Source of the DNA: Rhodothermales bacterium | Lineage (GTDB): Bacteria; Bacteroidota; Rhodothermia; Rhodothermales; UBA10348 | Length of the DNA stretch: 64,000 nucleotides | Direction: 5' to 3' | Assembly: GCA_029249345.1 (NCBI GenBank) | Contig: JAQWHM010000011.1 | Coordinates: 25,916-89,915 of the forward strand | Shown here: one piece after another, positions 1,260 through 26,805 of the stretch | Numbering within the stretch: the first letter of the stretch is position 1 | Layout of the letters: each line of letters starts with the position of its first letter | Notes under the pieces: generated by a model | What the model was told of the DNA's origin: nothing | What the model saw: only the letters and a program-made list of their open reading frames with translations | Database searches by the model: none | Position numbers and translations under genes: made by a program

Positions 1260-2297
1260 TCAAGAAGCGGTTTCCAAATTGTGAACGGTTTCACGTCGTG
1301 TGGTCTGACGTTCAATCAGACTTGGAGCGAATACGGTATGAGCAACCGGAGTATCAGGCCGCTGAATTCGCTCGATAAGAAGGTCAAAGGCACGACTTCC
1401 AATGTCATGCATAGGCTGACGCAGTGTGGTCAGTCCTAGGTGCCTTGACATCGGAAGATCATCGAATCCAATAATCTGAATATCTTCTGGCACATTTAGG
1501 CCGGCTTCGCGCACCGCCTGCATAGCACCGATCGCTTGAATATCTGAGGTCGCAAACACAGCATCTGGCTTTTCATCCCGTTTCAAAAACTCTTTCATTC
1601 CACTGTAACCACATGCCTCAGAAAACCCATCAAACTCTGCAGAGCGCGATGCAACAGACACCATATCCGGACTAAAGGTGCGACCGGACGCTTCATAGGT
1701 GCTGCGAAATCCTTCCAGGCGCTGGCTTGCTGGGATAGAATCCGGACTGGCCATGAGAACAACAGGGCGCTGAACGTCCGAGGAGAGGATAAATTCAGCG
1801 GCGGCTGTTCCCCCTCGGCGGTTATCGGTTGAAATAGAATCAAATGCGTGATGGTACGAATCCACCAATACCACGGGTTGGCCCCCCTTACTCATTTGTA
1901 CTTCCATTCCGTTTTGGACTGGAGCAGAAAAAAGAAGCACGCCCGCGGATCGTCCACGGTGCATTGCTTTTTCTAGTAGCGGACGTACATCTTCGAGAGT
2001 CGGGGCTGAAAAAACGAGTAAATCGTATGTCGATGTGGACATACGATCCTGCAATCCCTTAAGAACTTCAGCAAAGAAGTTGTTTGAGATCATGGGAATA
2101 ACGGCAGATATCGTCTCTGTTTGCCGTCGTGCAAGGCTCCTAGCAGATGCGTGAGGCTGATATCCTAGTTCTTCGGCAACCCGCAGAACTGTCTCCCGTG
2201 TCTCCTTTGAAACGCGTGGCTTGGCATTAAAAACCCGAGAAACGGTGGCAATAGAGACGCCTGCCCTCTCTGCAATATCGTAGATTGTGATGCCCAA
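1260..2297 (-). CDS. LacI-family transcriptional regulator
   Basis: N-terminal HTH TIYDIAERAGVSIATVSRV, sugar-binding-like domain, GFDD and LTTLRQP motifs; TTG start. Confidence 0.95.
   Translation of the reverse strand: MGITIYDIAERAGVSIATVSRVFNAKPRVSKETRETVLRVAEELGYQPHASARSLARRQTETISAVIPMISNNFFAEVLKGLQDRMSTSTYDLLVFSAPTLEDVRPLLEKAMHRGRSAGVLLFSAPVQNGMEVQMSKGGQPVVLVDSYHHAFDSISTDNRRGGTAAAEFILSSDVQRPVVLMASPDSIPASQRLEGFRSTYEASGRTFSPDMVSVASRSAEFDGFSEACGYSGMKEFLKRDEKPDAVFATSDIQAIGAMQAVREAGLNVPEDIQIIGFDDLPMSRHLGLTTLRQPMHDIGSRAFDLLIERIQRPDTPVAHTVFAPSLIERQTTRRETVHNLETAS
1280..1293. promoter_or_regulatory. Possible auxiliary LacI operator inside the 3' end of lacI
   Basis: TGTGAACGGTTTCA matches TGTAAGCGCTTACA at 10/14 with the central CG kept; 30 bp upstream of the TBDR start. 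Confidence 0.4.
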
Positions 2298-2312: not shown

Positions 2313-2326
2313 TGTAAGCGCTTACA
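2313..2326. promoter_or_regulatory. LacI-family operator (perfect palindrome)
   Basis: TGTAAGCGCTTACA, 14-bp perfect palindrome with CG centre, about 15 bp upstream of the lacI start. Confidence 0.85.
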
Positions 2327-2471
2327 TGACGGGCTAAAGAGTAGGGTATCGCGCTCAAAACGTCAAGGATGTTTTAGTGAATCTTTAATTTTGTCAATGG
2401 AGTTGGTAGGCCGTACTGTACTACAGAAACTGTAATACAGAAGATTGAAGTATCCAGAGAAGCAAAGGTCC

Positions 2472-3620
2472 ATGCAGGAAAAGAAGTCGTACGATATTGT
2501 GTTTGCCATCACGGGAGACTTGCATCGCAATATCCGGGCTTTGAAGCAACTTAGGTCCCTATCTGAGTCTGACTTTACGGTGTTTGTTCTTCATCTCGGT
2601 GGAAATACGCCTCCTTCAAAGTTGCCTAAAGGCGTTACCGAAAAGACGGTTCGGCTTACAGACGGAAGCGGCCCTCGGTATTTCCGGAGGCTCTCAAATG
2701 CCTTTAAAAAGGCAATGGTGGACATTCCAGCTCGCGTTTATCACGCATCTGACCTGTACACACTCAGGGCCTGTGCTACCATTTCAGCCAATCACTCAGC
2801 TGTGTATACCTTTGACTCTCGGGAATATTACGCTCATGTCTCGGCCACAACGGGACGTCCCTGGGTGCGGTGGTGGTGGAATATGGAGCAGCGCCAATTC
2901 CTACGTGGTGCTGCAGGTATCTGTACCGTTAGCGAGAGTATTGCAAACGCGCTCAGTAAAGATTTCTCCATTCCCAAGCCTGTAATTGTTGAGAACACAC
3001 CAGAAGCCACCGGTACAGAAGACGGACTCTCCATCCGTGAAATGCTAGCTGAACGAGGTATTGAGGATAACGGAGACCTCATTGCTCATATTGGACAAAT
3101 GAAAAAGGACCGCGGATGCGAACAACTCGTACTTTCGATGAAACAGGTGCCAGATGCTCATTTAGTATTCTTAGGATACGGTCCGATTCAACCCGAGCTT
3201 GAACGACTCACGGCAGAGCATAATCTCTCAGAACGTATTCACTTTTTGCCTCCTGTCCCACCGCGAGCCATCCAAAACGCATTGGTTGGAGTCTCGATTG
3301 GAATCACCATGCTGCTGGACACCTGTCTCAACCATCGGTATGCCCTTCCCAACAAGCTATTCGATTACATCCGAGCAGGCGTTCCTGTCCTGGGAGCTGA
3401 TCTTGTAGAGATGCGTCGCGTGATAAAGACGTTCGATATTGGGCAAACAGCGGACTCTAATGATCCGAATCAGATTTCAAAAGCGCTCAAATCCATGTTG
3501 AATTCGGAAGATCTCAGTAAGTGGTCTGCAAATGCCATGACTGCCACTGAAACATTTACATGGTCAAACGCATCTCAGCGATTCCTAGGTCTGATTAATC
3601 AGGCCGTGCCTAAACAGTGA
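2472..3620 (+). CDS. Glycosyltransferase family 4 (GT-B)
   Basis: YHASDLYTL, YDS/FDSRE, HIGQMKKDRGCEQL, ALPNKLFDYIRAGVPV motifs; the ORF track starts at TTG 2445, ATG 2472 preferred. Confidence 0.88.
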   Translation: MQEKKSYDIVFAITGDLHRNIRALKQLRSLSESDFTVFVLHLGGNTPPSKLPKGVTEKTVRLTDGSGPRYFRRLSNAFKKAMVDIPARVYHASDLYTLRACATISANHSAVYTFDSREYYAHVSATTGRPWVRWWWNMEQRQFLRGAAGICTVSESIANALSKDFSIPKPVIVENTPEATGTEDGLSIREMLAERGIEDNGDLIAHIGQMKKDRGCEQLVLSMKQVPDAHLVFLGYGPIQPELERLTAEHNLSERIHFLPPVPPRAIQNALVGVSIGITMLLDTCLNHRYALPNKLFDYIRAGVPVLGADLVEMRRVIKTFDIGQTADSNDPNQISKALKSMLNSEDLSKWSANAMTATETFTWSNASQRFLGLINQAVPKQ

Positions 3621-3636
3621 ATCGCTTTAGATCAGA

Positions 3637-4185
3637 ATGCGTCTACGGATCCAACATATTTTTCCTGTCTCTGCCATCGCCTTGATTTCGGTCATGCTGG
3701 CCCAGCCTCTTTTTGCTCAGGCAACAGAAGGTGTGACCCAGACTGCCCAGGAGCTGGCGCCTCAAATAGAATGGCCAGGATTTAACGATGCGTTCACGGC
3801 AGCTATAGAAAGCGAAAAACTGGTCGTTATTGACGTCTGGTCTCCAACCTGCGGATGGTGTCGAAAGCAGCAGGCCGAGGTCTATACTCAGCCAGATCTA
3901 CAGCGTTTTCTATTTGACAATTTTGAACTAGGGCGGATCAACCTAGATGTAACCGACGATACACTGACGTTCAGAGGGTACACGCTGAGCTCACAAATGC
4001 TGGCAGGAGGACTTGGTGCGACGGGCACCCCAACGACCATATTCATGGAGCCTGACGGAGCGTACATCACGAGGCTGCAGGGATACCACGCCTATGAAGA
4101 CTTTTACGATGTGCTTCGATTCATTGGAACTGAGTCGTTCCGCGATATGTCCTTTGAGGACTTTCTCAAAACGGAAGAAGAGTAA
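3637..4185 (+). CDS. Exported thioredoxin-fold protein (SoxW-like)
   Basis: Signal peptide, CGWC active site, GTPTTIF cis-Pro loop. Confidence 0.85.
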   Translation: MRLRIQHIFPVSAIALISVMLAQPLFAQATEGVTQTAQELAPQIEWPGFNDAFTAAIESEKLVVIDVWSPTCGWCRKQQAEVYTQPDLQRFLFDNFELGRINLDVTDDTLTFRGYTLSSQMLAGGLGATGTPTTIFMEPDGAYITRLQGYHAYEDFYDVLRFIGTESFRDMSFEDFLKTEEE

Positions 4186-4209
4186 GCCGAACTGTCTAGG
4201 GAAACGTGC

Positions 4210-4653
4210 TTAATCTCGCTTTAATCCAGAGCGGTCTTGGGCAAATGCCGAGCGAACTTTGTAGGATGTTTCTCTTTGTGCCAACACGGGATGCTCACCA
4301 TTGTAAGATCCATCTCCCGCTTCCGTCGTTGGGGTTGATGGAGCATCCGAAAGGTCACTCTCATTGCTGAAATCTTTCAGATTGCAGCGAGCTTGGAGCT
4401 CAAACTTCCAAAGCGCAGCGCTCTCAATAATCATATCGATTTCAGTACCGTCAGTCAGCCCAATAGCCAAAAGATCTGAGGACCAACGTATCTCCTGAAT
4501 TTCGTCTAACCGTACAATCTGTTTGAAGCCTAGACCCTTCAAAATGATACAGTTTGGAAGCAAACGCGCCCGACCAAAGAACACCCTGTCGTGCTCAAAC
4601 TTGAACTTAGATTTCAGAATCACCACCTGATCCACTTTCCCTCTTCTCGGCAT
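4210..4653 (-). CDS. Hypothetical protein (beta-rich N-terminal domain, disordered C-terminal tail)
   Basis: 147-aa ORF 11 bp downstream of the C-N hydrolase on the same strand. Confidence 0.6.
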   Translation of the reverse strand: MPRRGKVDQVVILKSKFKFEHDRVFFGRARLLPNCIILKGLGFKQIVRLDEIQEIRWSSDLLAIGLTDGTEIDMIIESAALWKFELQARCNLKDFSNESDLSDAPSTPTTEAGDGSYNGEHPVLAQRETSYKVRSAFAQDRSGLKRD

Positions 4654-4664
4654 CTGAATGTAAC

Positions 4665-5507
4665 CTAGTCCGTTTTATTATTTAGACGCACAGCCTGTTC
4701 TATGTACTCCGACGGGCGTCGATGTTTCAAGAACATTGTGCGTGCCGGCGACTCGGCAACAGCATGATAATCCAGATCGGCGTACAGGATAGCATCCTGA
4801 CCTCCTGGGGCTTGAGCGATAATCTGCCCTCGCGGATCTGTAATGAATGACTCTCCGGCGAACGTGAGCACATCTTCTTCTCCTACCCTATTAGATAGAG
4901 CCATGAAAAAGCCATGCTGAAATGAACCCGCTTGAAGCTCGGCTTCAAAGACGCCCTCAGGCCACTCACCAGCCGCACCCGCTTGTGGGATCACTACTAC
5001 ATCAGCTTCTTGTAAGGCCATGGATCGCAGATGCTCGGGGTAGTGCCTATCGTAACAAATTGATACGCCAATTCGACCATGAGCCGTATCGTAGACAGGA
5101 GCTCCCGTGTTTCCGGGATCGTAGTAATCCTGCTCAAAAAACGATTCGTACTGCGTGATGTGCATCATCCGGGTTACCCCTAGAATAGTGCCATCGGCAT
5201 CGATCACAGGAGAGGAATCGTAGGCGCAATCACCGTCCCGCTCATACAGATTTAGTACAATGACAACGCCTTCCTTTCGGGCCAAATCAACAAACACATC
5301 GGTTGTTGGGCCAGGAACAGGTTCTGCTAGATCAAATCGGTCGCCTTCCAAACGCTTCTGCGGGAAAAACGTGGAAAAAGCCAGTTCGGGGAAAACGATA
5401 ATTTTTGCACCATTCTCAATGGCCGCACGTGCGTTTTCTAGACCTTTTTGCAGGTTTGCTTTCGAATCTGCTGATGCAGACTGCTGAATCAGTGCGATTC
5501 TAGGCAT
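4665..5507 (-). CDS. Carbon-nitrogen hydrolase (nitrilase superfamily, N-carbamoylputrescine amidase-like)
   Basis: FPEL (catalytic Glu), ICYDRHYPE (catalytic Cys), NRVGEE, FAGESFITDP; the usual catalytic Lys position reads TRMMHI. Confidence 0.88.
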   Translation of the reverse strand: MPRIALIQQSASADSKANLQKGLENARAAIENGAKIIVFPELAFSTFFPQKRLEGDRFDLAEPVPGPTTDVFVDLARKEGVVIVLNLYERDGDCAYDSSPVIDADGTILGVTRMMHITQYESFFEQDYYDPGNTGAPVYDTAHGRIGVSICYDRHYPEHLRSMALQEADVVVIPQAGAAGEWPEGVFEAELQAGSFQHGFFMALSNRVGEEDVLTFAGESFITDPRGQIIAQAPGGQDAILYADLDYHAVAESPARTMFLKHRRPSEYIEQAVRLNNKTD

Positions 5508-5574
5508 GAGTATTCAGAAATTGGGGGGATTCCGATTAAAATAAATGTAGACATAAACGAGTTACCATTCTTGC

Positions 5575-6279
5575 CTAAAGAGCGGTAGTCGGAGTAGACG
5601 TAGGCGTGGGTCCAAATGAACCCGCAAGTAACGTGAGTGCAAACAATACCACCACCAAAATACCACCAGCTTTCATCGCACCGCGCAGTCCGGTGTTAGC
5701 GCGTTTGGAGTCTTCCGTAGAAAGATCACTGATCAGCGTGGCATAGGTCTCCTTATCGAGTTCATGGACATATTGAGCATCCACCCCAGTAGCAATCTCG
5801 TTAGCCAGCTGCTCAAGCCAGTACAATCCAATAAGATTATCCATAGGCCTTGTTTGGCCCGATATGCGCTGAAACGTCCCTTTAATCTGAACAAACACGG
5901 ATTCATCGCGCTCTTCAGCATTTATGGCCACTTTCATGAGCAAGTTATCCAAGTCTGGAACATGAGCCAGGGTATCTGCCAGCGCTTGTTGAACAGTACT
6001 AACAGACACCTAATCTGTTTGAACTAGACCTATACGATCGTTGGCCAGAGTAATAGAAAAATTGGAAGAGATGAGAGCCGAAGTCGCCTGGTCAACGATA
6101 TCTATTCGGTCAGCCATAGAAGTGAATGCGACCGACTCAACAGAGCTTCGCACGGGCGATGGCGTGGATATATACCGAGGCTGTGCACATCCTGCGATGA
6201 GCAAACTCCAGGATAGCAATCCTGAGATCCAAACTAATTTTCGACTTCTATACACTATAAAATGGTGTTTAACCTTCAA
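5575..6279 (-). pseudogene. Lipoprotein gene interrupted by one in-frame TAG at 6010-6012
   Basis: ORFs 6010-6279 and 5575-6009 are in the same frame with zero gap: ...GLVQTD-TAG-VSVSTV...; lipobox LIAGC, C-terminal TM helix. Confidence 0.7.
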
Positions 6280-6360
6280 CTAGGTGATCGACCCCTATGG
6301 TGGGTGCTTAAGCCTCGGCTTTGCTAACACTGCCGATAATGCTAACCTCGTCAACCTTGC

Positions 6361-7311
6361 TCAGTCAACTTCAGCAACAACGATTCGTTCTCGATTCGAC
6401 AAGTCGTGTATTATTTCCGTGTTGCGCAAGCCCGAATGTACAAACATCTCTAGAACGTCCGAACCAAAGTCAGCGTGAACCTCTACGGCTATTTTACCCG
6501 CTTTTTTAAGTACCAGAGGGGCTAACTCAGCAATTTTTCTGTAGAAAAGCAGCGGATCTGTACCGCAAAAAAGTGCCAATCCCGGTTCGTGGTCTCTGAC
6601 TTCCGTAGACAACGTCACGCTTTCACTATCCGGAATGTACGGGGGGTTAGAGATCAGCACATCAAACGGCACGTCAAGCTCCGATACGAAGGACTCAGAA
6701 AACAGGTCTAATTGCGAAAAACGGACCGAAGCTCCCAACGATGTGGCATTGAGCCGTGCTACTTCTAAAGCATCAGCAGATAGGTCTATTCCTGAACACG
6801 CTATTTCGCTGTTCTGTAAAGCAACTGTAATTGGAATACACCCTGAACCGGTACCAATATCTAGGAGTTTTGCACCAGGAGGCAGATTAGACTGCTCAAG
6901 CACCCATTCTACCAGAAGCTCTGTTTCCGGCCTTGGAATCAATACCGCTGAGTTCACTCGGAAGGTATAGCCAAAAAAGGAGGCTTCTCCCAAGATGTAC
7001 TGCACCGGTTCTCCAGCCATCCTTCTCTCACACATTTCCAAAAAGCGATTTCGGGATGCGGTATCGATTGTTGCATCTGGCTGGGACAACCGCGCCAACC
7101 TTGTCAGTCCCGTAGAAGCTTCAAACATCCACTCAAATTCTCTGGAAGATGGCTTTTCCTTCCGAGTACGCGCAACGTCCAGGGCTTCTTTAAGAATGTG
7201 CTCTGCAGAAAAGGATTTCAAGAAAAAGGTAGATGAAGGTAAAAAAGCAAGATAGATCCGACAAAGGCAGTCGAATTGCGAACGAGATCTACGTATATTT
7301 GCCCCGCTCAA
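6361..7311 (-). CDS. prmC: Release factor glutamine methyltransferase PrmC/HemK (true start probably TTG near 7221)
   Basis: GEPVQYILG, VLIPRPETE, LDIGTGSGCI and SNPPY motifs. Confidence 0.93.
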   Translation of the reverse strand: MSGANIRRSRSQFDCLCRIYLAFLPSSTFFLKSFSAEHILKEALDVARTRKEKPSSREFEWMFEASTGLTRLARLSQPDATIDTASRNRFLEMCERRMAGEPVQYILGEASFFGYTFRVNSAVLIPRPETELLVEWVLEQSNLPPGAKLLDIGTGSGCIPITVALQNSEIACSGIDLSADALEVARLNATSLGASVRFSQLDLFSESFVSELDVPFDVLISNPPYIPDSESVTLSTEVRDHEPGLALFCGTDPLLFYRKIAELAPLVLKKAGKIAVEVHADFGSDVLEMFVHSGLRNTEIIHDLSNRERIVVAEVD

Positions 7312-7386
7312 GCGCGCTTTAACCCTTCGAGCGGCATAGCGATCCTCCCGACCGTCAAAACGGGCGGGATTTTTTCTGGATCGCCA

Positions 7387-7400
7387 TGTAAGCGTTTACA
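7387..7400. promoter_or_regulatory. LacI-family operator upstream of glgP
   Basis: TGTAAGCGTTTACA, 13/14 identical to the palindrome at 2313-2326; 31 bp upstream of the glgP ATG. Confidence 0.8.
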
Positions 7401-7431: not shown

Positions 7432-9465
7432 ATGACTACTCGCGAACAATTACACGAAATCAGCCGAAATCTCTGGTGGAGCTGGCACCCAGAAGCCCTC
7501 ACCCTTTTTCAACGACTGAATCGAGACGCATTTCAGGCTTCGGGAAATAATCCGAACATTGCCCTGAAACTCGCTCGTGCAGACGTGCTTACCGACCCTC
7601 AGGTTCAGGCGGAAGTGGATTCGGTGTACCGCAGTTTCAAAGAATACATGGAGTCGCCGGGTGAAAACCAAGATGCACCCAAAACGGCGTATTTCTGTAT
7701 GGAATACGGACTGCACGAAAGCCTCCCGTTGTATTCTGGAGGCCTAGGCATACTTGCCGGGGATCACGTCAAGGCGGCCTCGGACGTCGGGCTTCGCTTT
7801 ACCGCCGTAGGCTTGTTTTTAAGAGATGGGTATTTCAGGCAGTATTTCGACCCAAAAGGTCTTCAGCACGATGATTACCCAGCCATTGATTCTACCGAGC
7901 AACCCGTTGAGCTGGTTGTGGACGAAGACGGCGCACCCATCACGGTTACCGTACACACGGGGCATCAGCCTATCCACCTCAGAGCATGGAAAGTGTGTGT
8001 TGGAAAGACGGCATTGTACCTCCTGGATACCGACTTCGCTGCAAACCCGTACGAAATACGCTTCTTAACTCGCCGTCTGTATCAGGGAAATCGATACACA
8101 CGTATCCAGCAAGAAATCATTCTTGGTATTGGCGGACTACGGTTTTTACGGGCTATTGGCGAATCATTCGATGTGCATCACATGAATGAAGGTCATTGTG
8201 CTTTTCTAACACTCGAAATGGTCCGCGAGCACCTAGCAGCAGGCTTATCTCGGCAAGAAGCTGAAGAAGCAACTCGCGCATCCTGTGTATTCACTACACA
8301 TACCCCTGTCATTGCTGGTCACGATCGATTCGAACCCAACCTGTTTACTTCCACATTAGCAGGATTTCGAGATGAAATTGGGTTTTCCGAATACGATATG
8401 CTGTCGTACGGCCGAGTACATCCCGAGGATGGAGGTGAAGAATTTACCATGACTGTCTTGGGGCTGAAATTATCGAGATCAGCCAATGGGGTTTCCGAGT
8501 TACACGGAAAGGTGGCGAGACATCAGTGGAACCACCTATTTGCGGATCTCGCCCCTGCAGAGGTGCCAATCACTCATATCACCAATGGCATCCATCTCCC
8601 CACCTGGGCCGCTCCCGCATCGCGCTCCTTCCTAGACGTACATCTTGGATCCTGGACCGCCGACAGAGAAAACCAGGCTACTTGGGATCGCATTGATCAG
8701 GTTTCTGATCGGGCCATTTGGGAATACAGAAACCGACTCCGATCCAGCCTTATTTCGTTTGTTAACGCACACATCCGCACACAGACCATGTCGCAGGATG
8801 CTATGCTGAACAGAGACGCCTTGACGATCGGTTTTGCGCGTCGATTTGCGACGTATAAGCGGGCCCCTCTTCTGTTTTCTGATATCGAACGTATCACCCA
8901 ATTATTTCAGCATTCAGATCGTCCGATACAAGTTATTTATGCTGGCAAAGCCCATCCCCAAGACGAAGGTGGCAAAGCGTTCATTCAGAAAATCTATGAG
9001 TTGTCCCATCGGTCAGCATTCAATGGCCGCTTGATATTTCTGGAAAACTACAACATGGAGATTGGTCGCAAGCTCATTTCTGGATGCGATGTCTGGCTGA
9101 ATAACCCGCGCCGCCCGATGGAAGCGAGTGGAACAAGTGGACAAAAAGTGGCCATTCACGGTGGCCTAAACTTGTCTATTCCGGACGGTTGGTGGCCAGA
9201 GGGCTACAACGGCACGAATGGTTGGTCCATCGGAGACAATGCTTCGCATGAGTATGAAGACCCATCTGTTCAGGATCCAAGAGATGCCGAACTGCTTTAC
9301 GACCTTTTGGAAAACGCTGTTATTCCGTTGTTCTATTCACGAGGCGAAAAAGGGAGACCCGACGAATGGATTGCAATGATCCGATCCGCCATGAAAGGAT
9401 TAACCTACAAGTTCAGCGCGCACCGCATGTTGCTGGAATACATCGAGAAAATATATTCCGTCTAG
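7432..9465 (+). CDS. glgP: Alpha-glucan (glycogen/maltodextrin) phosphorylase
   Basis: NLWWSW, YFCMEYGL, YSGGLGILAGDH, HMNEGH, GFARRFATYKR, EASGTSGQK (PLP lysine); ATG 7432 preferred over 7276. Confidence 0.95.
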   Translation: MTTREQLHEISRNLWWSWHPEALTLFQRLNRDAFQASGNNPNIALKLARADVLTDPQVQAEVDSVYRSFKEYMESPGENQDAPKTAYFCMEYGLHESLPLYSGGLGILAGDHVKAASDVGLRFTAVGLFLRDGYFRQYFDPKGLQHDDYPAIDSTEQPVELVVDEDGAPITVTVHTGHQPIHLRAWKVCVGKTALYLLDTDFAANPYEIRFLTRRLYQGNRYTRIQQEIILGIGGLRFLRAIGESFDVHHMNEGHCAFLTLEMVREHLAAGLSRQEAEEATRASCVFTTHTPVIAGHDRFEPNLFTSTLAGFRDEIGFSEYDMLSYGRVHPEDGGEEFTMTVLGLKLSRSANGVSELHGKVARHQWNHLFADLAPAEVPITHITNGIHLPTWAAPASRSFLDVHLGSWTADRENQATWDRIDQVSDRAIWEYRNRLRSSLISFVNAHIRTQTMSQDAMLNRDALTIGFARRFATYKRAPLLFSDIERITQLFQHSDRPIQVIYAGKAHPQDEGGKAFIQKIYELSHRSAFNGRLIFLENYNMEIGRKLISGCDVWLNNPRRPMEASGTSGQKVAIHGGLNLSIPDGWWPEGYNGTNGWSIGDNASHEYEDPSVQDPRDAELLYDLLENAVIPLFYSRGEKGRPDEWIAMIRSAMKGLTYKFSAHRMLLEYIEKIYSV

Positions 9466-18871: not shown

Positions 18872-19866
18872 TTCTGCCCGACTCATCCTTACATGATTCA
18901 ACGGTCTTCCTCACCGGAGGAACTGGATTCGTAGGAAGTCATCTAGCTGAACGCCTGTTATCGGTAGGATGCAGGGAAGTCCGATGCCTCGTTCGTACGG
19001 ATGAAAAGTGGCTTTCTGGTCTAAACATAAAAGTGGTTCGCGGAACGCTGGCAGATAGTGCCGTTCTGGAAGCCGCCATGAAAGACGTAACCCACGTCTT
19101 TCATGTGGCAGCATTAACCCGCGCAAGGGACTGGAATGATTTCTATGAGGCGAATGTGCTGGGTACGGACCGACTCATCCGCTTAGCGCGGAAGTCATCA
19201 ACCCTGAAACGCATCGTACTGACCAGTAGCCTCGCTGCTATTGGAGAGGCACCCGGCGCAGTTGCCAACGAATCCACTCCGTTCAACCCAGTGAGTCAGT
19301 ATGGGAGAAGTAAGGCGGAAATGGAGCAAGTCGCTGCAGGGCATGATTTTCCAATAACAATCCTGCGTCCCCCGGCGGTGTATGGCCCCAGAGAAACCGA
19401 CATCTTTACATTTTTCAAAACCCTTTCCTCCGGCCTGTGCCCAGTTGTTGGGTCCGCCAAAACAACGGCGCTGAGCCTCGTACACGTAGATGACCTCGTG
19501 ACGGGAATGATTCAAGCCGCCTTCCACCCGGAAGCCGAAGGTAAAACCTTTTTCTTGGGTGGCGAGCAGGATTATTCCTGGGGAGAAATCAGAGACGCAG
19601 CCAAGACAGCGTTGAACAGAAATGTATTGACCCTTCCCATCCCACCGGCGTTGGTCCCAGCTATCGGCAACGTAGCAGAAACGATTGGAAACATATTTGG
19701 GTTTTATCCGCCATTGAACAAAGAAAAGGCCCGTGAAATAGTGAGGGCAACGCTTCGTTGTGATAGTTCATTGGCCCAATCAACGTTTGGATATGCCCCG
19801 GAAAAGGACCTAGGCACCGGAATTACCGAGACCATTTCATGGTATCGCGAACGAAAATGGTTGTAA
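18868..19866 (+). CDS. NAD-dependent epimerase/dehydratase
   Basis: TGGTGFVGS Rossmann motif, YGRSK, RPPAVYGP; GTGA overlap with rlmD. Confidence 0.9.
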   Translation: MILPDSSLHDSTVFLTGGTGFVGSHLAERLLSVGCREVRCLVRTDEKWLSGLNIKVVRGTLADSAVLEAAMKDVTHVFHVAALTRARDWNDFYEANVLGTDRLIRLARKSSTLKRIVLTSSLAAIGEAPGAVANESTPFNPVSQYGRSKAEMEQVAAGHDFPITILRPPAVYGPRETDIFTFFKTLSSGLCPVVGSAKTTALSLVHVDDLVTGMIQAAFHPEAEGKTFFLGGEQDYSWGEIRDAAKTALNRNVLTLPIPPALVPAIGNVAETIGNIFGFYPPLNKEKAREIVRATLRCDSSLAQSTFGYAPEKDLGTGITETISWYRERKWL

Positions 19867-19985
19867 ACGCTTTGAATCTTTGCTGAATCTCGCAATATCA
19901 TCTCGTTGGGTGAATCAGTTTAAAACCGGTATCGTTGACCGACTCCCTTATTTTTATCCCTTAACGCCACCAGCACACCGAAACC

Positions 19986-22900
19986 GTGAGCACATTAGGC
20001 TTTAACACAGGCTACATCGAAGAACTTTACCGTCAGTATCTACAAGATCCTGACAGTGTAGGCGAAAGCTGGAAAGAGTTCTTTCAGGATTTTACTCCCG
20101 ACGAAGGGTTCATAGCAGTTACCGAAGCACGGGCTGTTCCAACAGAACCGACCCCGGATGCAAAGGCAGAGCCGAAGTCCAAGCCGGTTTCCGAGGATTA
20201 TGCGAGTGAAAAGCCCATTAGAGGCCCCTCAGCAACAATCGTTGAGAATATGCAGGCGAGCCTCGAAGTACCAACGGCTACCTCGGTTCGAACCGTCCCC
20301 GTAAAGCTCATGGCAGAAAACCGGACGCTGATCAACGAGCATCAGCGTCTAGTGGGTGGAAATAAGGTGTCTTTTACACACCTCATCGCTTGGGCTATCG
20401 TGCAGGCGATGAAAAAATTCCCGTCCATGAATACGACATATCGGGAAGGCGATGACGGGCACATACATGTCGTACCGCATGCCGTGAACCTGGGGCTTGC
20501 CATTGATATTGAGCGCCGCGGTAGGCGTACGCTTTTGGTACCGAATATCAAGAGCGCCGACTTGATGAACTTTGCCCAGTTACTTGGCACGTACAACGAC
20601 ATCGTAAAGCGAGCCCGAGACAACAAACTTACCATTGCTGATTTCCAGCACACGACCGCCACGCTTACCAATCCCGGAATGATTGGTACCAATCTAAGTG
20701 TGCCACGCCTCATGCCCGGCCAAGGGGTTATTGTCGGAGTCGGCGCCATTGGATATCCCTCTGAATACTATGCTTTCCCTCCTGAGGTAATCAGTCAGAC
20801 CGGGATTTCTCAGGTTATGACGATCACATCGACGTACGACCACCGAGTGATTCAGGGCGCAGAAAGTGGGGCCTTCTTGGCACACATCGAGCAACTGCTC
20901 CGTGGTGAGCACGGATTCTACTCAGAAATTTTTGCTGACCTCGCTGTTCCTTATCAGCCGTGGACCTTGGCCACAGATACGACACCGCGAGTAGGCACGA
21001 GCGGGAAGCTTTCCGAGATCGATGTCATCCATAAGGAAGCAAGTGTCCTTCAGTTAATCCGGGCTTTCCGCGTTCGAGGCCATTTGCAGGCCGATGTGAA
21101 TCCTCTAGGTTACGCCTGGGTTGCCCATCCTGAATTGGATCCAGCCACTTACGGACTGACCATTTGGGACCTGGACCGAAAGTTTGTGACCGGCGGACTA
21201 GGAGGCAAAGACATGCTTCCTCTCAGAGGCATTCTGGATATTCTTCGGCGAACCTACACGCGGCAAATCGGAGTTGAGTTCATGCACATCTCTTCACCAG
21301 AAGAGAAAAAGTGGATTACAGAACGTATTGAACCGGGTGAAACGGATTTTGCGACATCCGACGAAGAGAAGCGCCGAATGCTGCAGAAACTGAATGCCGC
21401 AGAGGCATTTGAAACGTTCCTACATACGAAGTATATCGGGCACAAGCGTTTCTCTCTGGAGGGATCGGAAACCGTAATCCCTATGCTGGACCGCATCCTC
21501 TCAGATGCCGCAGAAAAAGGAGTAGGAGGCGTTGTGATGGGAATGGCACATAGAGGAAGACTCAATGTGCTGGCCAACATCATGAACAAACCCTATGAGG
21601 TCATCTTCTCAGAGTTCGAGGGGAATCTGGATCCTACAACTACACAAGGCTCAGGTGATGTCAAGTACCACCTAGGCTCCTCGAGCGAACACGAAGCTCC
21701 TGATGGCCATAAAATCGGAGTGGTGCTGGCCTCCAACCCAAGCCATCTGGAGGCCGTTAACCCGGTTGTAGAGGGCATGGTACGAGCCAAGCAAGAGGCT
21801 AGGCGGCATGCACCGGACAATCCGGACAATGATTACCTGGATTCCGTCATTCCGATGCTGATCCACGGAGATGCAGCGTTTGCCGGACAGGGCGTGGTGG
21901 CTGAGACGCTACACCTAAGCCAACTACCCGGATACCGAACTGGCGGCACGATTCATATCGTTATTAACAACCAGATTGGATTTACAACGGGTCCTTCAGA
22001 TGCCAGAAGTTCTCAATACGCGACGGATAGTGCACGTATGATTCAGGCACCTATTTTCCATGTGAATGGAGATGACCCTGAAGCCTGTACGAGAGTGGCT
22101 CGTCTTGCGTTGGAATACCGCCAAGCCTTTAACAAGGATGTGGTAATTGACATGTTGTGCTACCGCGTCCGCGGTCATAATGAAGGGGACGAACCAACCT
22201 ACACGCAGCCCCTTCTCTACAAGAAGATCGAGGCCAAACGGTCTCCTCGAAAAATGTACACTGAGCTGCTACTGCGGCGAGGAGACATGACGCCGGAAGA
22301 AGCGGAAAGCATATTGGACGATTATCGTTCACGTCTGCAGGAAGCATTTGAACGCACCAAAGAAATTAGCGACCGGGAGGCTCCTTCTTCCGAGGACCTG
22401 ATCAAATCGAAAGTACAGAAGTCTTTACCTGTGGTGGAAACGGCCGTACCAGAAGAGAATCTGGAAGCCATCGTACGTGCCTTGACCAATCACCCAATGG
22501 AATTTAATGTCCATAAAAAACTCACTCGACAGTTCTCCCGGAGGGAAAAGCTGTATTTCGATGAGAAACGAATTGATTGGGGATTTGCCGAAGCATTGGC
22601 CTTCGGAAGTATTCTTCTAGACAATACCGAAATCCGCATTAGTGGTCAGGATTCCAGACGAGGAACGTTCTCACATCGTCATGCCGTTCTGTACGACCAA
22701 CAAGATGGCAGCGAGTACATTCCGCTAAATCACATCCAACCGACACAGGAGTCGCTTGGGATTTACGATTCACTGCTTTCAGAATACGCAGTTTGTGGAT
22801 TCGAATACGGTTACTCGGTAGCTCATCCAAATGCACTAGTCGTTTGGGAAGCTCAGTTCGGAGATTTTGCGAATGGTGCCCAGATCATTTTTGATCAATT

Positions 22901-23603
22901 CCTATCCGCTGCAGAGGAAAAATGGGGCCAGACAAGCAGTCTGACCTTGCTACTGCCGCACGGATTTGAGGGCCAGGGACCGGAGCACTCCTCTGCGCGT
23001 CTCGAACGCTTCTTACAGTTGTGTGCTGAGAACAACATGATTGTCTGTTCTTTCTCGACTCCAGCCAACCTGTTTCATGGACTGCGACGCCAGGCGGATA
23101 ACTCCATTCGGAAGCCGCTCGTCGTTATGTCACCAAAATCCCTGTTGCGGCATCCCGACGTTATTTCAACGCCGGAAGATCTTTATGATGGCCGATTCCA
23201 AGAGGTCATTCCTTCTGCTGATGCTTCAGCCGTACGAAAACTCGTCTTTTGCAGCGGCAAAATGTATTACGACGTCAAGCAAGCTGTAGAAGCCGAAGGC
23301 AAACAGGACGAAATTGCCGTCACACGCCTCGAGCAGTTCTATCCATTCCCGTCGGCAGAGGTAAAAGCTGAACTGGAACGATTCGGCGCTGCGCAGGAGG
23401 TGGTTTGGGTACAGGAAGAGCCTGCCAACATGGGTGCATGGACGTTCGTTCGAGACTTTTTCGATAACGAACTTGAGACGGCTACCTGCGAAGCCAATCG
23501 AATCCGTTACATCGGGCGCACGGCAGCGGCCTCTCCCGCTACCGGATCGGCACAAGTTCACCAGGCTGAACAGACTTCCATTCTGAACGTCGTTACCGGA
23601 TAA
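19986..23603 (+). CDS. kgd: Multifunctional 2-oxoglutarate decarboxylase/dehydrogenase (Kgd type: E2-like domain fused to E1)
   Basis: E2-like YDHRVIQGAESG, then E1 motifs KRFSLEG, GMAHRGRLNVL, SHLE, HGDAAFAGQG...NNQIGF, WEAQFGDF, PEHSSARLER. Confidence 0.92.
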   Translation: MSTLGFNTGYIEELYRQYLQDPDSVGESWKEFFQDFTPDEGFIAVTEARAVPTEPTPDAKAEPKSKPVSEDYASEKPIRGPSATIVENMQASLEVPTATSVRTVPVKLMAENRTLINEHQRLVGGNKVSFTHLIAWAIVQAMKKFPSMNTTYREGDDGHIHVVPHAVNLGLAIDIERRGRRTLLVPNIKSADLMNFAQLLGTYNDIVKRARDNKLTIADFQHTTATLTNPGMIGTNLSVPRLMPGQGVIVGVGAIGYPSEYYAFPPEVISQTGISQVMTITSTYDHRVIQGAESGAFLAHIEQLLRGEHGFYSEIFADLAVPYQPWTLATDTTPRVGTSGKLSEIDVIHKEASVLQLIRAFRVRGHLQADVNPLGYAWVAHPELDPATYGLTIWDLDRKFVTGGLGGKDMLPLRGILDILRRTYTRQIGVEFMHISSPEEKKWITERIEPGETDFATSDEEKRRMLQKLNAAEAFETFLHTKYIGHKRFSLEGSETVIPMLDRILSDAAEKGVGGVVMGMAHRGRLNVLANIMNKPYEVIFSEFEGNLDPTTTQGSGDVKYHLGSSSEHEAPDGHKIGVVLASNPSHLEAVNPVVEGMVRAKQEARRHAPDNPDNDYLDSVIPMLIHGDAAFAGQGVVAETLHLSQLPGYRTGGTIHIVINNQIGFTTGPSDARSSQYATDSARMIQAPIFHVNGDDPEACTRVARLALEYRQAFNKDVVIDMLCYRVRGHNEGDEPTYTQPLLYKKIEAKRSPRKMYTELLLRRGDMTPEEAESILDDYRSRLQEAFERTKEISDREAPSSEDLIKSKVQKSLPVVETAVPEENLEAIVRALTNHPMEFNVHKKLTRQFSRREKLYFDEKRIDWGFAEALAFGSILLDNTEIRISGQDSRRGTFSHRHAVLYDQQDGSEYIPLNHIQPTQESLGIYDSLLSEYAVCGFEYGYSVAHPNALVVWEAQFGDFANGAQIIFDQFLSAAEEKWGQTSSLTLLLPHGFEGQGPEHSSARLERFLQLCAENNMIVCSFSTPANLFHGLRRQADNSIRKPLVVMSPKSLLRHPDVISTPEDLYDGRFQEVIPSADASAVRKLVFCSGKMYYDVKQAVEAEGKQDEIAVTRLEQFYPFPSAEVKAELERFGAAQEVVWVQEEPANMGAWTFVRDFFDNELETATCEANRIRYIGRTAAASPATGSAQVHQAEQTSILNVVTG

Positions 23604-25146: not shown

Positions 25147-26805
25147 ATGAAAATGCGCCTTCTACTTCTTACCGTTTTTGTTTTTCTAATTGGCTGCGAC
25201 GCACCTGTAGTGGACGAAGACTCCTACATCCTTTCCGATGCTGTCATTTACACCATGGACGAAGATATACCTGAAGCGGAAGCGATGGCAGTTATCGACG
25301 GCAAGGTCGTTATGGTAGGCCACGCTGACGACGTTACTGAATCCTATCCAGACCTGCGAGTACTTAGCGCTAGCGGAAAAACGATCCTTCCTGGATTCAC
25401 CGACGGACATGGACACTTCATGGGGCTTGGCATGGAAAAACTCCAGGTCGACCTACGAGGTACCCATTCAATAGAAGAAGTCATTCAACGAATGAAAGAC
25501 TTCTCTGGAGACATAGAGAAAGGTGCGTGGATCCTAGGACGCGGTTGGAATCAGGTTTTGTGGCCAGATCGCGAATTTCCCACCCGATATGATCTGGACA
25601 TGCACTTTCCGGATAACCCTGTCTGGTTGAGGCGGGTTGATGGGCATGCGGGCTGGGCAAATACGGCCGCCATGGAATTAGCAGGAATCGATTCCATCCG
25701 CACTATGGAAGACCCGCAGGGAGGAACCGTGTTGCGCGATGCAATGGGTGAGCCTACCGGAATATTCGTAGATGCTACCATGGGAACGATCTCCAGTCTC
25801 ACCCCTGATTTTACTGATGAGGATCTAGATCGCGCTTTGCAACTAGCCCTTGAAGAAGCTGCTGAGATGGGGCTTACCGGCATCCATGACGCTGGTGTTG
25901 GCATGAACACCATTGAGCGCTATAAGAAATTTATTGATGAAGACCGCTTTACCGTCCGAATGTATGCGATGGTAGGGGGAACGGGTGCCACATTCGATGC
26001 GCTCTGTAATAACCACATTTTAGACTACGGTGACCACTTAACGGTTCGCTCGGTTAAACTCTACTTAGATGGGGCACTCGGAAGCAGGGGTGCGGCTCTC
26101 CTAAATGAATACACCGATGACCCAGGCAACAAAGGTCTCATCCGGACTTCAGTCGAAGATTTCAACGGAGTAGTAAAGCGAGCTCTAGACTGTGGCTACC
26201 AAATTAACACGCACGCGATTGGCGATAGAGCCAATCGCGTATTACTCGAAGGATACGAGGCAGCTGGGGCCACACCAGCAGGCCGTCATCGTGATGAACA
26301 CACCCAGATCGTTGCTCTTGAGGACATACCCCGATTCCAGAAACTCGGTATCATTGCCTCCATGCAACCAACACACGCTACGAGCGATCTAAACATGGCC
26401 GAAGACCGTCTAGGTCCGCATCGGATTAAAGGAGGATATGCCTGGCGAACGCTCAAGGATGCTGGTATTCCGCTTGCATTCGGATCTGACTTCCCTGTTG
26501 AAAAATCAAACCCATTAGATGGCTTTTTTGCTTCGGTCACCAGACAAACCCAAGACTTACTGCCTGAAGGTGGATGGTATCCTGAAGAACGTCTCACTCG
26601 AGAAGAAACGTTAGCTGCATTTACCAAGGACAACGCGTTCGCCGCGTTTCAGGAAAACCAACTCGGCTCTCTTTCTCCTGGGAAATATGCCGATTTTGTG
26701 GTGTTATCATCAGACATTATGACTATCCCCTCTCCTCAGATCCTCGAGGCCACCGTCGTAGCCACATTCGTGGGTGGGGAAATGATCTATGGCTCACTCA
26801 ATTAA
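25147..26805 (+). CDS. Amidohydrolase family 3 (YtcJ-like), probable lipoprotein
   Basis: Lipobox LIGC, PGFTDGHGH, DGALGSRGA, HAIGDRA, GSDFPV. Confidence 0.9.
   Translation: MKMRLLLLTVFVFLIGCDAPVVDEDSYILSDAVIYTMDEDIPEAEAMAVIDGKVVMVGHADDVTESYPDLRVLSASGKTILPGFTDGHGHFMGLGMEKLQVDLRGTHSIEEVIQRMKDFSGDIEKGAWILGRGWNQVLWPDREFPTRYDLDMHFPDNPVWLRRVDGHAGWANTAAMELAGIDSIRTMEDPQGGTVLRDAMGEPTGIFVDATMGTISSLTPDFTDEDLDRALQLALEEAAEMGLTGIHDAGVGMNTIERYKKFIDEDRFTVRMYAMVGGTGATFDALCNNHILDYGDHLTVRSVKLYLDGALGSRGAALLNEYTDDPGNKGLIRTSVEDFNGVVKRALDCGYQINTHAIGDRANRVLLEGYEAAGATPAGRHRDEHTQIVALEDIPRFQKLGIIASMQPTHATSDLNMAEDRLGPHRIKGGYAWRTLKDAGIPLAFGSDFPVEKSNPLDGFFASVTRQTQDLLPEGGWYPEERLTREETLAAFTKDNAFAAFQENQLGSLSPGKYADFVVLSSDIMTIPSPQILEATVVATFVGGEMIYGSLN

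Follow-up and report, generated by a model that had tools for sequence, protein, structure and literature searches.

A LacI-family repressor with two operators very probably links an alpha-glucan uptake operon to an alpha-glucan phosphorylase gene in a Rhodothermales bacterium

LacI-family transcription factors are mostly local regulators, 72% of which are autoregulated, and at least eight non-orthologous groups of the family control the use of maltose or maltodextrin (PMC4052901). In Streptococcus pneumoniae, MalR controls malMP, including the phosphorylase, together with transporter genes (PMC4451989), and in Xanthomonas a maltose-induced TonB-dependent receptor (TBDR) is encoded in a locus with GH13-type enzymes, a major facilitator superfamily (MFS) transporter and a LacI-type repressor, which is related to the MalA locus of Caulobacter (PMC1790865). 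Here we describe a comparable system in 64,000 nucleotides (“the window”, positions 25,916 to 89,915 of contig JAQWHM010000011.1) of a Rhodothermales bacterium whose assembly comprises 2.87 Mb in 24 contigs. It consists of a LacI-family repressor gene (lacI), which heads an operon with a TBDR gene, and of a phosphorylase gene (glgP) 5 kb away, with one copy of a palindromic operator upstream of each (O-lacI and O-glgP). In our reading, which we hold with good confidence, this LacI is a local repressor of an alpha-glucan regulon with two operators, through which the TBDR operon and glgP would be co-induced.

The MalR regulon of S. pneumoniae and other Firmicutes (PMC4451989, PMC4052901) resembles the present system in its autoregulated LacI-type repressor, in its CG-centred palindromes and in combining uptake genes with the phosphorylase-containing malM/malP. 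MalR responds to maltose/maltodextrin, whereas a corresponding effector is a prediction here; the Gram-positive system relies on an ABC transporter, whereas the present one has a TBDR, an MFS transporter and amylases that would be exported by the type IX secretion system (T9SS). The two regulators are also not orthologous (the present LacI reaches no equivalog model), and malQ lies outside the regulon of the present genome. The TBDR locus around XCC2469 of Xanthomonas campestris, a carbohydrate utilization (CUT) locus, and Caulobacter MalA (PMC1790865) likewise resemble it in combining a TBDR with a sugar transporter of the inner membrane, with enzymes of GH13 type and with a repressor of the LacI family, there a maltose repressor. 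Both are proteobacterial, PMC1790865 describes for them neither an unlinked phosphorylase member nor a terminator-operator module, and the TBDRs are likened here by locus content rather than by orthology. By this analogy the design would be that of the MalR/MalT regulons and of the proteobacterial CUT loci, and as such unsurprising to a specialist. We found no published regulon reconstruction for the lineage, which the 2014 survey of the LacI family (PMC4052901) does not mention, and a literature search for the exact 14-mer of the operator returned nothing.

A preliminary description of this DNA, made from the sequence alone, had reported a perfect palindrome just upstream of lacI and a 13/14 copy 31 bp upstream of glgP, and both sites are indeed there. 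O-lacI (TGTAAGCGCTTACA) lies 15 bp upstream of the TTG start of lacI (2297, minus strand), while O-glgP (TGTAAGCGTTTACA) departs from the palindrome only by a change of C9 to T, starts 11 nt past a T-run and leaves 31 bp between its end and the phosphorylase ATG at 7432. If the longest phosphorylase open reading frame (ORF) were taken, from TTG 7276, the operator would fall inside the gene; because the orthologs align from ATG 7432, the operator is placed upstream of the gene, and the region upstream of this ATG is not conserved as protein. In form the sites are palindromes with a central CG near the promoters that they would regulate, as are LacI/GalR-type operators (14-20 bp). The window holds two matches to the motif with up to two mismatches vs. 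0.17 expected, and a scan of the whole genome found one exact and one one-mismatch copy, which are O-lacI and O-glgP, and only six two-mismatch copies. By simple arithmetic, ~0.46 sites with up to one mismatch are expected in a genome of this size, and the two observed are both intergenic and 5 kb apart. Scored with a position weight matrix (PWM) built from 42 orthologous operator sites, O-lacI is the best site of the genome (26.6 bits) and O-glgP the second (23.9 bits), with no other among the 2.87 million positions above 13.5 bits.

The evidence that ties these sites to the adjacent regulator is comparative, and comes from 40 related genomes (same genus, family and order) which with the present one make 41. 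They were searched with the LacI protein, with the motif at up to one mismatch and with the phosphorylase protein, and 29 genomes including the present one proved to have a clear LacI ortholog, at 44-68% identity or, at contig ends, as a fragment. Each of the 29 has one or more sites with up to one mismatch, vs. 3 of the 12 genomes without an ortholog (nine have no site, three have one or two), while a reversed-pattern control gave ~0.4 matches per genome in the same scan. The motif thus tracks the ortholog, as the preliminary description's choice of LacI as the regulator of both sites would predict. When the 350 nt upstream of 36 orthologous phosphorylase genes were compared, a glgP site with up to two mismatches was present in 14/27 genomes with the regulator and in 0/7 without it, the best matches in these seven having 5-6 mismatches, i.e., background. 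The site is kept at glgP even where lacI is 2.0 and 2.2 Mb away (relatives G026 and G032) or on a separate contig, at least 30 kb apart (G027 and G038), and where lacI and glgP are divergent (G011) each has one operator. The earlier proposal that one regulator couples alpha-glucan uptake to phosphorolysis is therefore upheld by comparison; that glgP orthologs carry the site is true of about half of the ortholog-bearing genomes and fails for the rest, a point to which we return below.

The form of the glgP site is itself conserved. In a family-level scan of 35 genomes, exact TGTAAGCGTTTACA occurs once per genome in 12, before glgP wherever checked, and the reversed control not at all. A 14-mer identical to O-glgP stands upstream of glgP in these 12 family genomes and in G034 and G038, with variants of up to two mismatches in G011, G026, G027, G031 and G032. 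Because the genomes that share the 14-mer have phosphorylases of only 60-70% identity and unalignable intergenic flanks, the 14-mer must be under strong constraint. An explanation of the C9-to-T asymmetry as an extended -10 element (TGT-AAGCGT) was considered and rejected, as G016 has, at the same position, its exact mirror image, TGTAAACGCTTACA. What is conserved at glgP would thus appear to be a near-perfect palindrome with one deviating position, perhaps an operator weakened by design.

The protein encoded by lacI has the architecture of the LacI/GalR family, with an N-terminal helix-turn-helix domain (PF00356, 68.8 bits, residues 4-48) and a C-terminal effector domain (PF13377 Peripla_BP_3, 97.7 bits, and PF00532), and it aligns over its full length to the structures of CcpA, PurR, RbsR and LacI. 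Its closest solved relatives are the Bacillus CcpA-DNA complexes 1zvv and 1rzr (162.7 bits), to which recognition helix (VSIATVSRVFN vs. VSMATVSRVVN in CcpA) and hinge (ARSLA aligned with ARGLA) are nearly identical, including the hinge-helix leucine of the family. The operator described here is presumably the same palindrome as the idealized, optimal CcpA cre site. In DNA complexes of PurR, LacI and CcpA the hinge leucine inserts at the central CpG of the operator, and binding of the present LacI to its sites is predicted in the same way. In a search of genome contigs with the LacI protein, only distant LacI proteins from Chloroflexi, Actinobacteria and Spirochaetes were returned. Nevertheless the regulator is not CcpA: it falls below every NCBIfam equivalog cut-off and far below that for ccpA (TIGR01481, 173.3 bits vs. 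a cut-off of 442). CcpA is global, has HPr-Ser-P as corepressor and binds many sites, whereas the present LacI has two sites and is encoded within the operon that it would control.

The preliminary description had also noted that operators of this form are often autoregulatory, and comparison with the orthologs supports autoregulation here. At least 26 related genomes have the operator (the 14-mer with up to two changes) 11-92 nt ahead of their lacI ortholog and 10-13 nt past a conserved -10 element. The putative promoter of the present operon has a -35 TTGACG (2366-2361), a 17-nt spacer and a -10 TACTCT (2343-2338) that ends 11 nt before the operator, and the pattern TTGACn-16/18-TAnnnT, with a gap of 10-13 nt to the operator, recurs at about 18-20 orthologous lacI loci. 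A scan with the strict sigma-70 consensus reported no promoter in either intergenic region, and the lacI promoter is visible only through ortholog comparison. If transcription starts where this promoter predicts, O-lacI would cover roughly +4 to +17 of the transcript, which would be the classical place of a primary operator of the LacI family. The arrangement thereby resembles O1 of the Escherichia coli lac operon, just past the transcription start, and differs from lac O1/O2 in that the operators here, at a distance of 5 kb, each belong to a transcription unit of their own. Since no C-terminal tetramerization heptad is evident in the present LacI, looping between the two operators is not expected. 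Divergent from lacI, and 118 nt from the operator, lies a gene for a GT4-family glycosyltransferase (2445-3620, plus strand), a neighbor also found in G009.

The operon that O-lacI precedes reads, on the minus strand after lacI, TBDR, a 1213-aa protein, a PorV/PorQ-family protein, a CBM20 protein (738 aa, with a T9SS sorting tail), a first GH13 enzyme (1010 aa, with a T9SS tail), an MFS/GPH transporter and a second GH13 enzyme (491 aa), i.e., seven genes. The TBDR gene follows 9 nt past the lacI stop and runs off the window, so that 20 kb upstream of the window were analyzed as well. Its PorV-like gene, CBM20 protein, pair of GH13 amylases and MFS transporter identify the operon as a starch/maltodextrin (alpha-glucan) utilization locus. 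It is of the CUT type, since TBDR, inner-membrane transporter, carbohydrate-active enzymes and regulator stand together in one locus, rather than a SusC/SusD polysaccharide utilization locus (PUL). This off-window content (CBM20, two GH13, MFS) also supports alpha-glucan as the TBDR substrate, which had been proposed from the window. With the Sus system and other PULs of Bacteroides the locus shares TonB-dependent outer-membrane capture of starch fragments, surface or secreted amylases and starch-binding modules. It differs from them in that no SusD-family match was detected in any operon protein, in that the TBDR is far below the cut-off of the SusC/RagA model (TIGR04056, 56.9 bits vs. 368), and in that a LacI-type regulator takes the place of SusR or a hybrid two-component system. 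The position of the PorV/PorQ-family gene beside two T9SS-tailed proteins suggests that the secreted amylases have a T9SS shuttle of their own. The 1213-aa protein, without any Pfam or NCBIfam match, is a candidate surface glucan-binding or SusD/E/F-like component. A second operator in G002 stands 246 nt upstream of the gene for a probable ortholog of this protein.

The phosphorylase, the only one of the genome (a single match in a protein search), had been called a glycogen phosphorylase, of which the phosphorylase part stands and the specific name does not. Its residues 86-676 belong to the alpha-glucan phosphorylase subfamily TIGR02094 (765.8 bits, cut-off 191.7), it is nearest to the maltodextrin phosphorylase model of Thermococcales (641.8 bits, which is under the cut-off of that equivalog), and it falls far short of the classical GlgP/MalP model TIGR02093 (63.6 bits vs. 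a cut-off of 552.9). We keep glgP below as the name of the gene only. Divergent from it lies prmC (6361-7224, minus strand, with PrmC_N and methyltransferase domains), whose longest ORF (TTG 7311) is probably over-extended by the 7222-7311 stretch, a TTG near 7224 suiting the domain start better. The coordinates of the main features are collected in Table 1.

Table 1. Features of the alpha-glucan regulon. Single coordinates are window positions; G000 denotes the present genome, and other G numbers in the text denote relatives.
Feature	Position	Strand	Basis or remark
TonB-dependent receptor (TBDR), 910 aa in full	3-1250 in window; G000:C4:24433-27165	-	CarboxypepD_reg, Plug and TonB barrel domains
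LacI-family repressor gene, 345 aa, TTG start	1260-2297	-	PF00356, PF13377; start kept in orthologs
Operator O-lacI, perfect palindrome	2313-2326	.	sequence, PWM, conservation
Putative sigma-70-type promoter of lacI operon	2338-2366	-	read from sequence and ortholog comparison
Conserved (C)GTATATT box, -10-like, ~90 nt upstream of O-glgP	7294-7299	+ (inferred)	ortholog comparison
Terminator-like hairpin and T-run	7346-7375	+	5' arm 7346-7354, 3' arm 7361-7369, T-run 7370-7375; terminator scan
Operator O-glgP, 13/14 match to palindrome	7387-7400	.	sequence, PWM, conservation
Alpha-glucan (maltodextrin-type) phosphorylase, GT35, 677 aa	7432-9465	+	TIGR02094; DUF3417 and Phosphorylase Pfam domains
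1213-aa ORF between TBDR and PorV-like gene	L001:12815-16456 = G000:C4:20814-24455	-	just off window
PorV/PorQ-family gene	L001:11782-12810	-	in starch operon
CBM20 protein and GH13, both with T9SS sorting tails	L001:6367-11645	-	adjoin PorV/PorQ-family gene

From these elements we propose the following mechanism. At O-lacI, the repressor would occlude or trap polymerase at the lacI promoter and so shut the operon from lacI to the second GH13 gene, thereby regulating its own synthesis. At O-glgP, it would most probably act as a roadblock to polymerases that have started further upstream, with the TATATT box at 7294 as the candidate promoter; roadblock action is known for cre sites that lie past a promoter. 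An imported malto-oligosaccharide, or a product thereof, would be the likely inducer and would relieve both blocks, such that outer-membrane capture, hydrolysis, inner-membrane import and cytoplasmic phosphorolysis would be switched on together.

The proposal for glgP draws on a leader module that recurs in 13 genomes, namely the present one, several species in each of three further genera of its family and, from a different family, G034. Its order is (C)GTATATT, then in most genomes TTCAAC 6-8 nt later, then GATCC(T/A)CCCG leading into a GC-rich hairpin, 4-7 T, and the operator. The predicted folding energies of the hairpins range from -5 to -19 kcal/mol over the 13 genomes, and the stems show compensatory changes (CCCGaCCG/CGGgCGGG, CCCGaTACG/CGTAcCGGG, CCCGGCC/GGCCGGG, CCCGGTC/GACCGGG, CCCGAC/GTCGGG, CTCCCG/CGGGAG). 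In an alignment that was fitted to the structure model, and of sequences that are related to each other, 6 of 8 stem pairs are changed on both sides, the covariation score is 0.343 vs. 0.160 in shuffled alignments (0 of 500 shuffles reach 0.343), and the unslid register of the stem beats all slid ones. With its GC-rich hairpin, U-tract and covariation, the element has the sequence make-up of an intrinsic terminator. Counted from the last T of the run, the operator begins after 10-13 nt (mean 10.8, sd 0.95), whereas the operator-to-ATG distance (6-104 nt) and the loops (3-23 nt) vary among these genomes. The hairpin is single-copy in the genome, no Rfam family came near its gathering score in a search with the glgP leader, and in 151 genomes of the order a hairpin-plus-operator model reached 46 bits or more in this family and in G034 only. 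A second pairing, of CGATCC before the hairpin with GGATCG after the T-run, is possible in the present genome, G007 and G043 and was discarded as inconsistent elsewhere.

The TATATT box precedes glgP in nearly all relatives. Because these include genomes without operator, hairpin or regulator, it is the best candidate for the glgP promoter, or else for the promoter of a short leader RNA, although no clear -35 element is seen for it. The alternative of the T-run as the -10 of a glgP promoter is unsupported, there being no -35 at 16-18 nt, and is retained only within one of the rival explanations considered below. In G007, G019 and G041 the gap between operator and ATG is only 6-9 nt, and the promoter must therefore lie upstream of the operator. 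In several relatives the ATG of the divergent gene is only 10-20 nt from the box. The glgP leader of G013 (G013:C241, L059) keeps hairpin and T-run, and 12 nt on has a degenerate operator, TGCAGGCGTTCAAA, with five mismatches, which gives the impression of a terminator that is retained as its operator decays.

Taken together, the leader suggests that repressor roadblock and termination may be coupled at glgP, and it is tempting to extend the roadblock into a repressor-assisted attenuator, in which repressor bound 10-13 nt past the U-tract would stall polymerase on the U-tract of a leaky terminator and so cause release, and inducer would allow read-through. During elongation, a bacterial polymerase has a downstream footprint of the order of 10-13 nt, which would leave the active center on or near the U-tract, and formally the arrangement is like the eukaryotic Pol I pair of Reb1/TTF-I and a T-rich release element. 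We regard this extension as tentative, and on balance rather unlikely. It would account for the maintenance of hairpin and T-run, compensatory changes included, for a near-constant gap next to variable distances, for the joint lack of hairpin and operator in G002 and G005, which keep the regulator, and for a TATATT box at the glgP loci, as expected of a promoter ahead of a terminator and as the short operator-ATG gaps of G007, G019 and G041 demand. However, 10-13 nt also separates the -10 element from the operator at lacI, so that the T-run could be part of a promoter; G013 has hairpin and T-run with only the degenerate operator; the glgP operators of other families lack the hairpin, that of G026 overlapping a TTGACA promoter; and a limited literature search found no natural bacterial precedent for a terminator-operator module.

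That same equality of spacing would favor another explanation, which we consider doubtful and a little less probable still, i.e., that the hairpin terminates a separate small RNA (sRNA) of ~65-75 nt transcribed from the TATATT box, with the glgP promoter at the T-run and operator and repressed by occlusion. A -10-like box, TTCAAC 6-8 nt on, a conserved single-stranded CCGATCC and a terminator are indeed a typical sRNA layout. However, the hairpin offers no -35 at the right distance, whereas the lacI promoters of the same genomes have a clear TTGACn, and the box persists in hairpin-less genomes, as expected of the glgP promoter itself. The absence of an Rfam match for the leader, and an element that is single-copy and always attached to glgP, also speak against a separate sRNA.

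Returning to the two-operator repressor regulon itself, several observations weigh against it and should be set beside the comparative evidence. The glgP site is absent in 13 of the 27 ortholog-bearing genomes and in all five other species of the same genus, among which G002 and G005 keep both the regulator and the gene order, so that the link between regulator and glgP appears evolutionarily labile. The PWM scan found no site at malQ (C19:254265-255962) or at three other GH13 genes of the present genome. With a GlgA-type glycogen synthase encoded in the genome (C7:77049), the phosphorylase may serve internal glycogen too, and products of glycogen breakdown could in turn act on the repressor, a kind of feedback known from E. 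coli. The position of O-glgP downstream of a terminator-like hairpin is not the classical one, and the glgP promoter is a candidate only. Finally, the genome encodes two other LacI-family proteins (C3:83276-84253 and C8:21860-22798).

The regulon of the present genome would accordingly be small, comprising exactly two operators by our scans, and most of its alpha-glucan genes lie outside it: a second alpha-glucan cluster (G000:C19:250900-255962, two GH13 genes and malQ) has no operator, and further GH13 genes are found at C8:234363 and C3:292097. The expectation of the preliminary description that further PWM hits would precede GH13, malQ, glgX or transporter genes therefore fails here, while it is borne out among the relatives, where sites with up to one mismatch precede TBDR genes (G013, G016, G036, G037), GH13 genes (G027, G030, G034) and a GH97 gene (G026). 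Within the malQ (GH77) coding sequence of three relatives, perfect TGTAAGCGCTTACA occurs at homologous codons (G012:C22:14150-14163, G016:C6:15947-15960 and G022:C1:929047-929060; L090, L092, L094), ~310-440 nt past the start, where it encodes (D/G)-VSAYK; the malQ of the present genome has RVIPFK there and no site. By analogy with lacO2 in lacZ, which it recalls, this may be an intragenic operator. In two families the operator also precedes genes for a PPIC-type rotamase (a SurA-like peptidyl-prolyl isomerase; G012:C13:15915 and G027:C9:22265; L091, L098), which may be a chaperone member of the regulon. The PPIC-type gene of G027 directly follows lacI.

Other candidate members in the present genome (at window position 19862, C12:24513 and C16:42561) were rejected, as they score 12-13.5 bits and are unrelated to alpha-glucans, or are different palindromes. 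The first, TGTAAACGCTTTGA (12.7 bits, 19862-19875), lies 110 nt before a gene for 2-oxoglutarate dehydrogenase and is probably a chance match; the enzyme itself (1205 aa, 19986-23603, plus strand) has an E2-type acyltransferase domain fused ahead of the E1 domains, as in Kgd/OdhA. The other two are perfect CG-centred intergenic palindromes, TGAAAACGTTTTCA (G000:C12:24513-24526) and TGGAAGCGCTTCCA (G000:C16:42561-42574), 150 and 55 nt before genes, and are candidate operators of the two other LacI paralogs.

That one of these paralogs, or a global CcpA-like regulator, rather than the adjacent LacI, binds O-lacI and O-glgP is suggested by the motif, a generic cre/LacI-family consensus, as well as by the existence of the paralogs. 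We consider this very unlikely, as two sites in a genome do not fit a global regulator, the motif follows the ortholog of the adjacent LacI across the 41 genomes, the site is fixed to the promoter of the adjacent lacI across the order, and a search found the motif upstream of neither paralog gene. That the second site might be a chance near-copy without function, as the 2 of 100 window shuffles that gave at least two matches at up to two mismatches might allow, is hardly credible given the low genome-wide expectation for two intergenic sites 5 kb apart, and is already contradicted by the identical 14-mer before glgP in 14 genomes with otherwise unalignable flanks; a chance origin of the two sites is excluded.

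Overall, the two sites provide a first operator motif for a starch/maltodextrin regulator of the LacI family in this lineage, along with a probable regulon of two units. We found no published regulon with its parts, namely T9SS-secreted amylases, a non-SusC TBDR and a TIGR02094 phosphorylase. If the repressor does enforce termination in the glgP leader, the module would be an unusual bacterial terminator controlled by a DNA-binding protein, easily testable and a compact part for synthetic biology. For the organism, the regulon makes alpha-glucan oligosaccharides the probable substrate of a non-SusC TBDR and of an operon protein of 1213 aa without recognizable domains, and it marks the TIGR02094 phosphorylase as what would be the catabolic, MalP-type step of the pathway.

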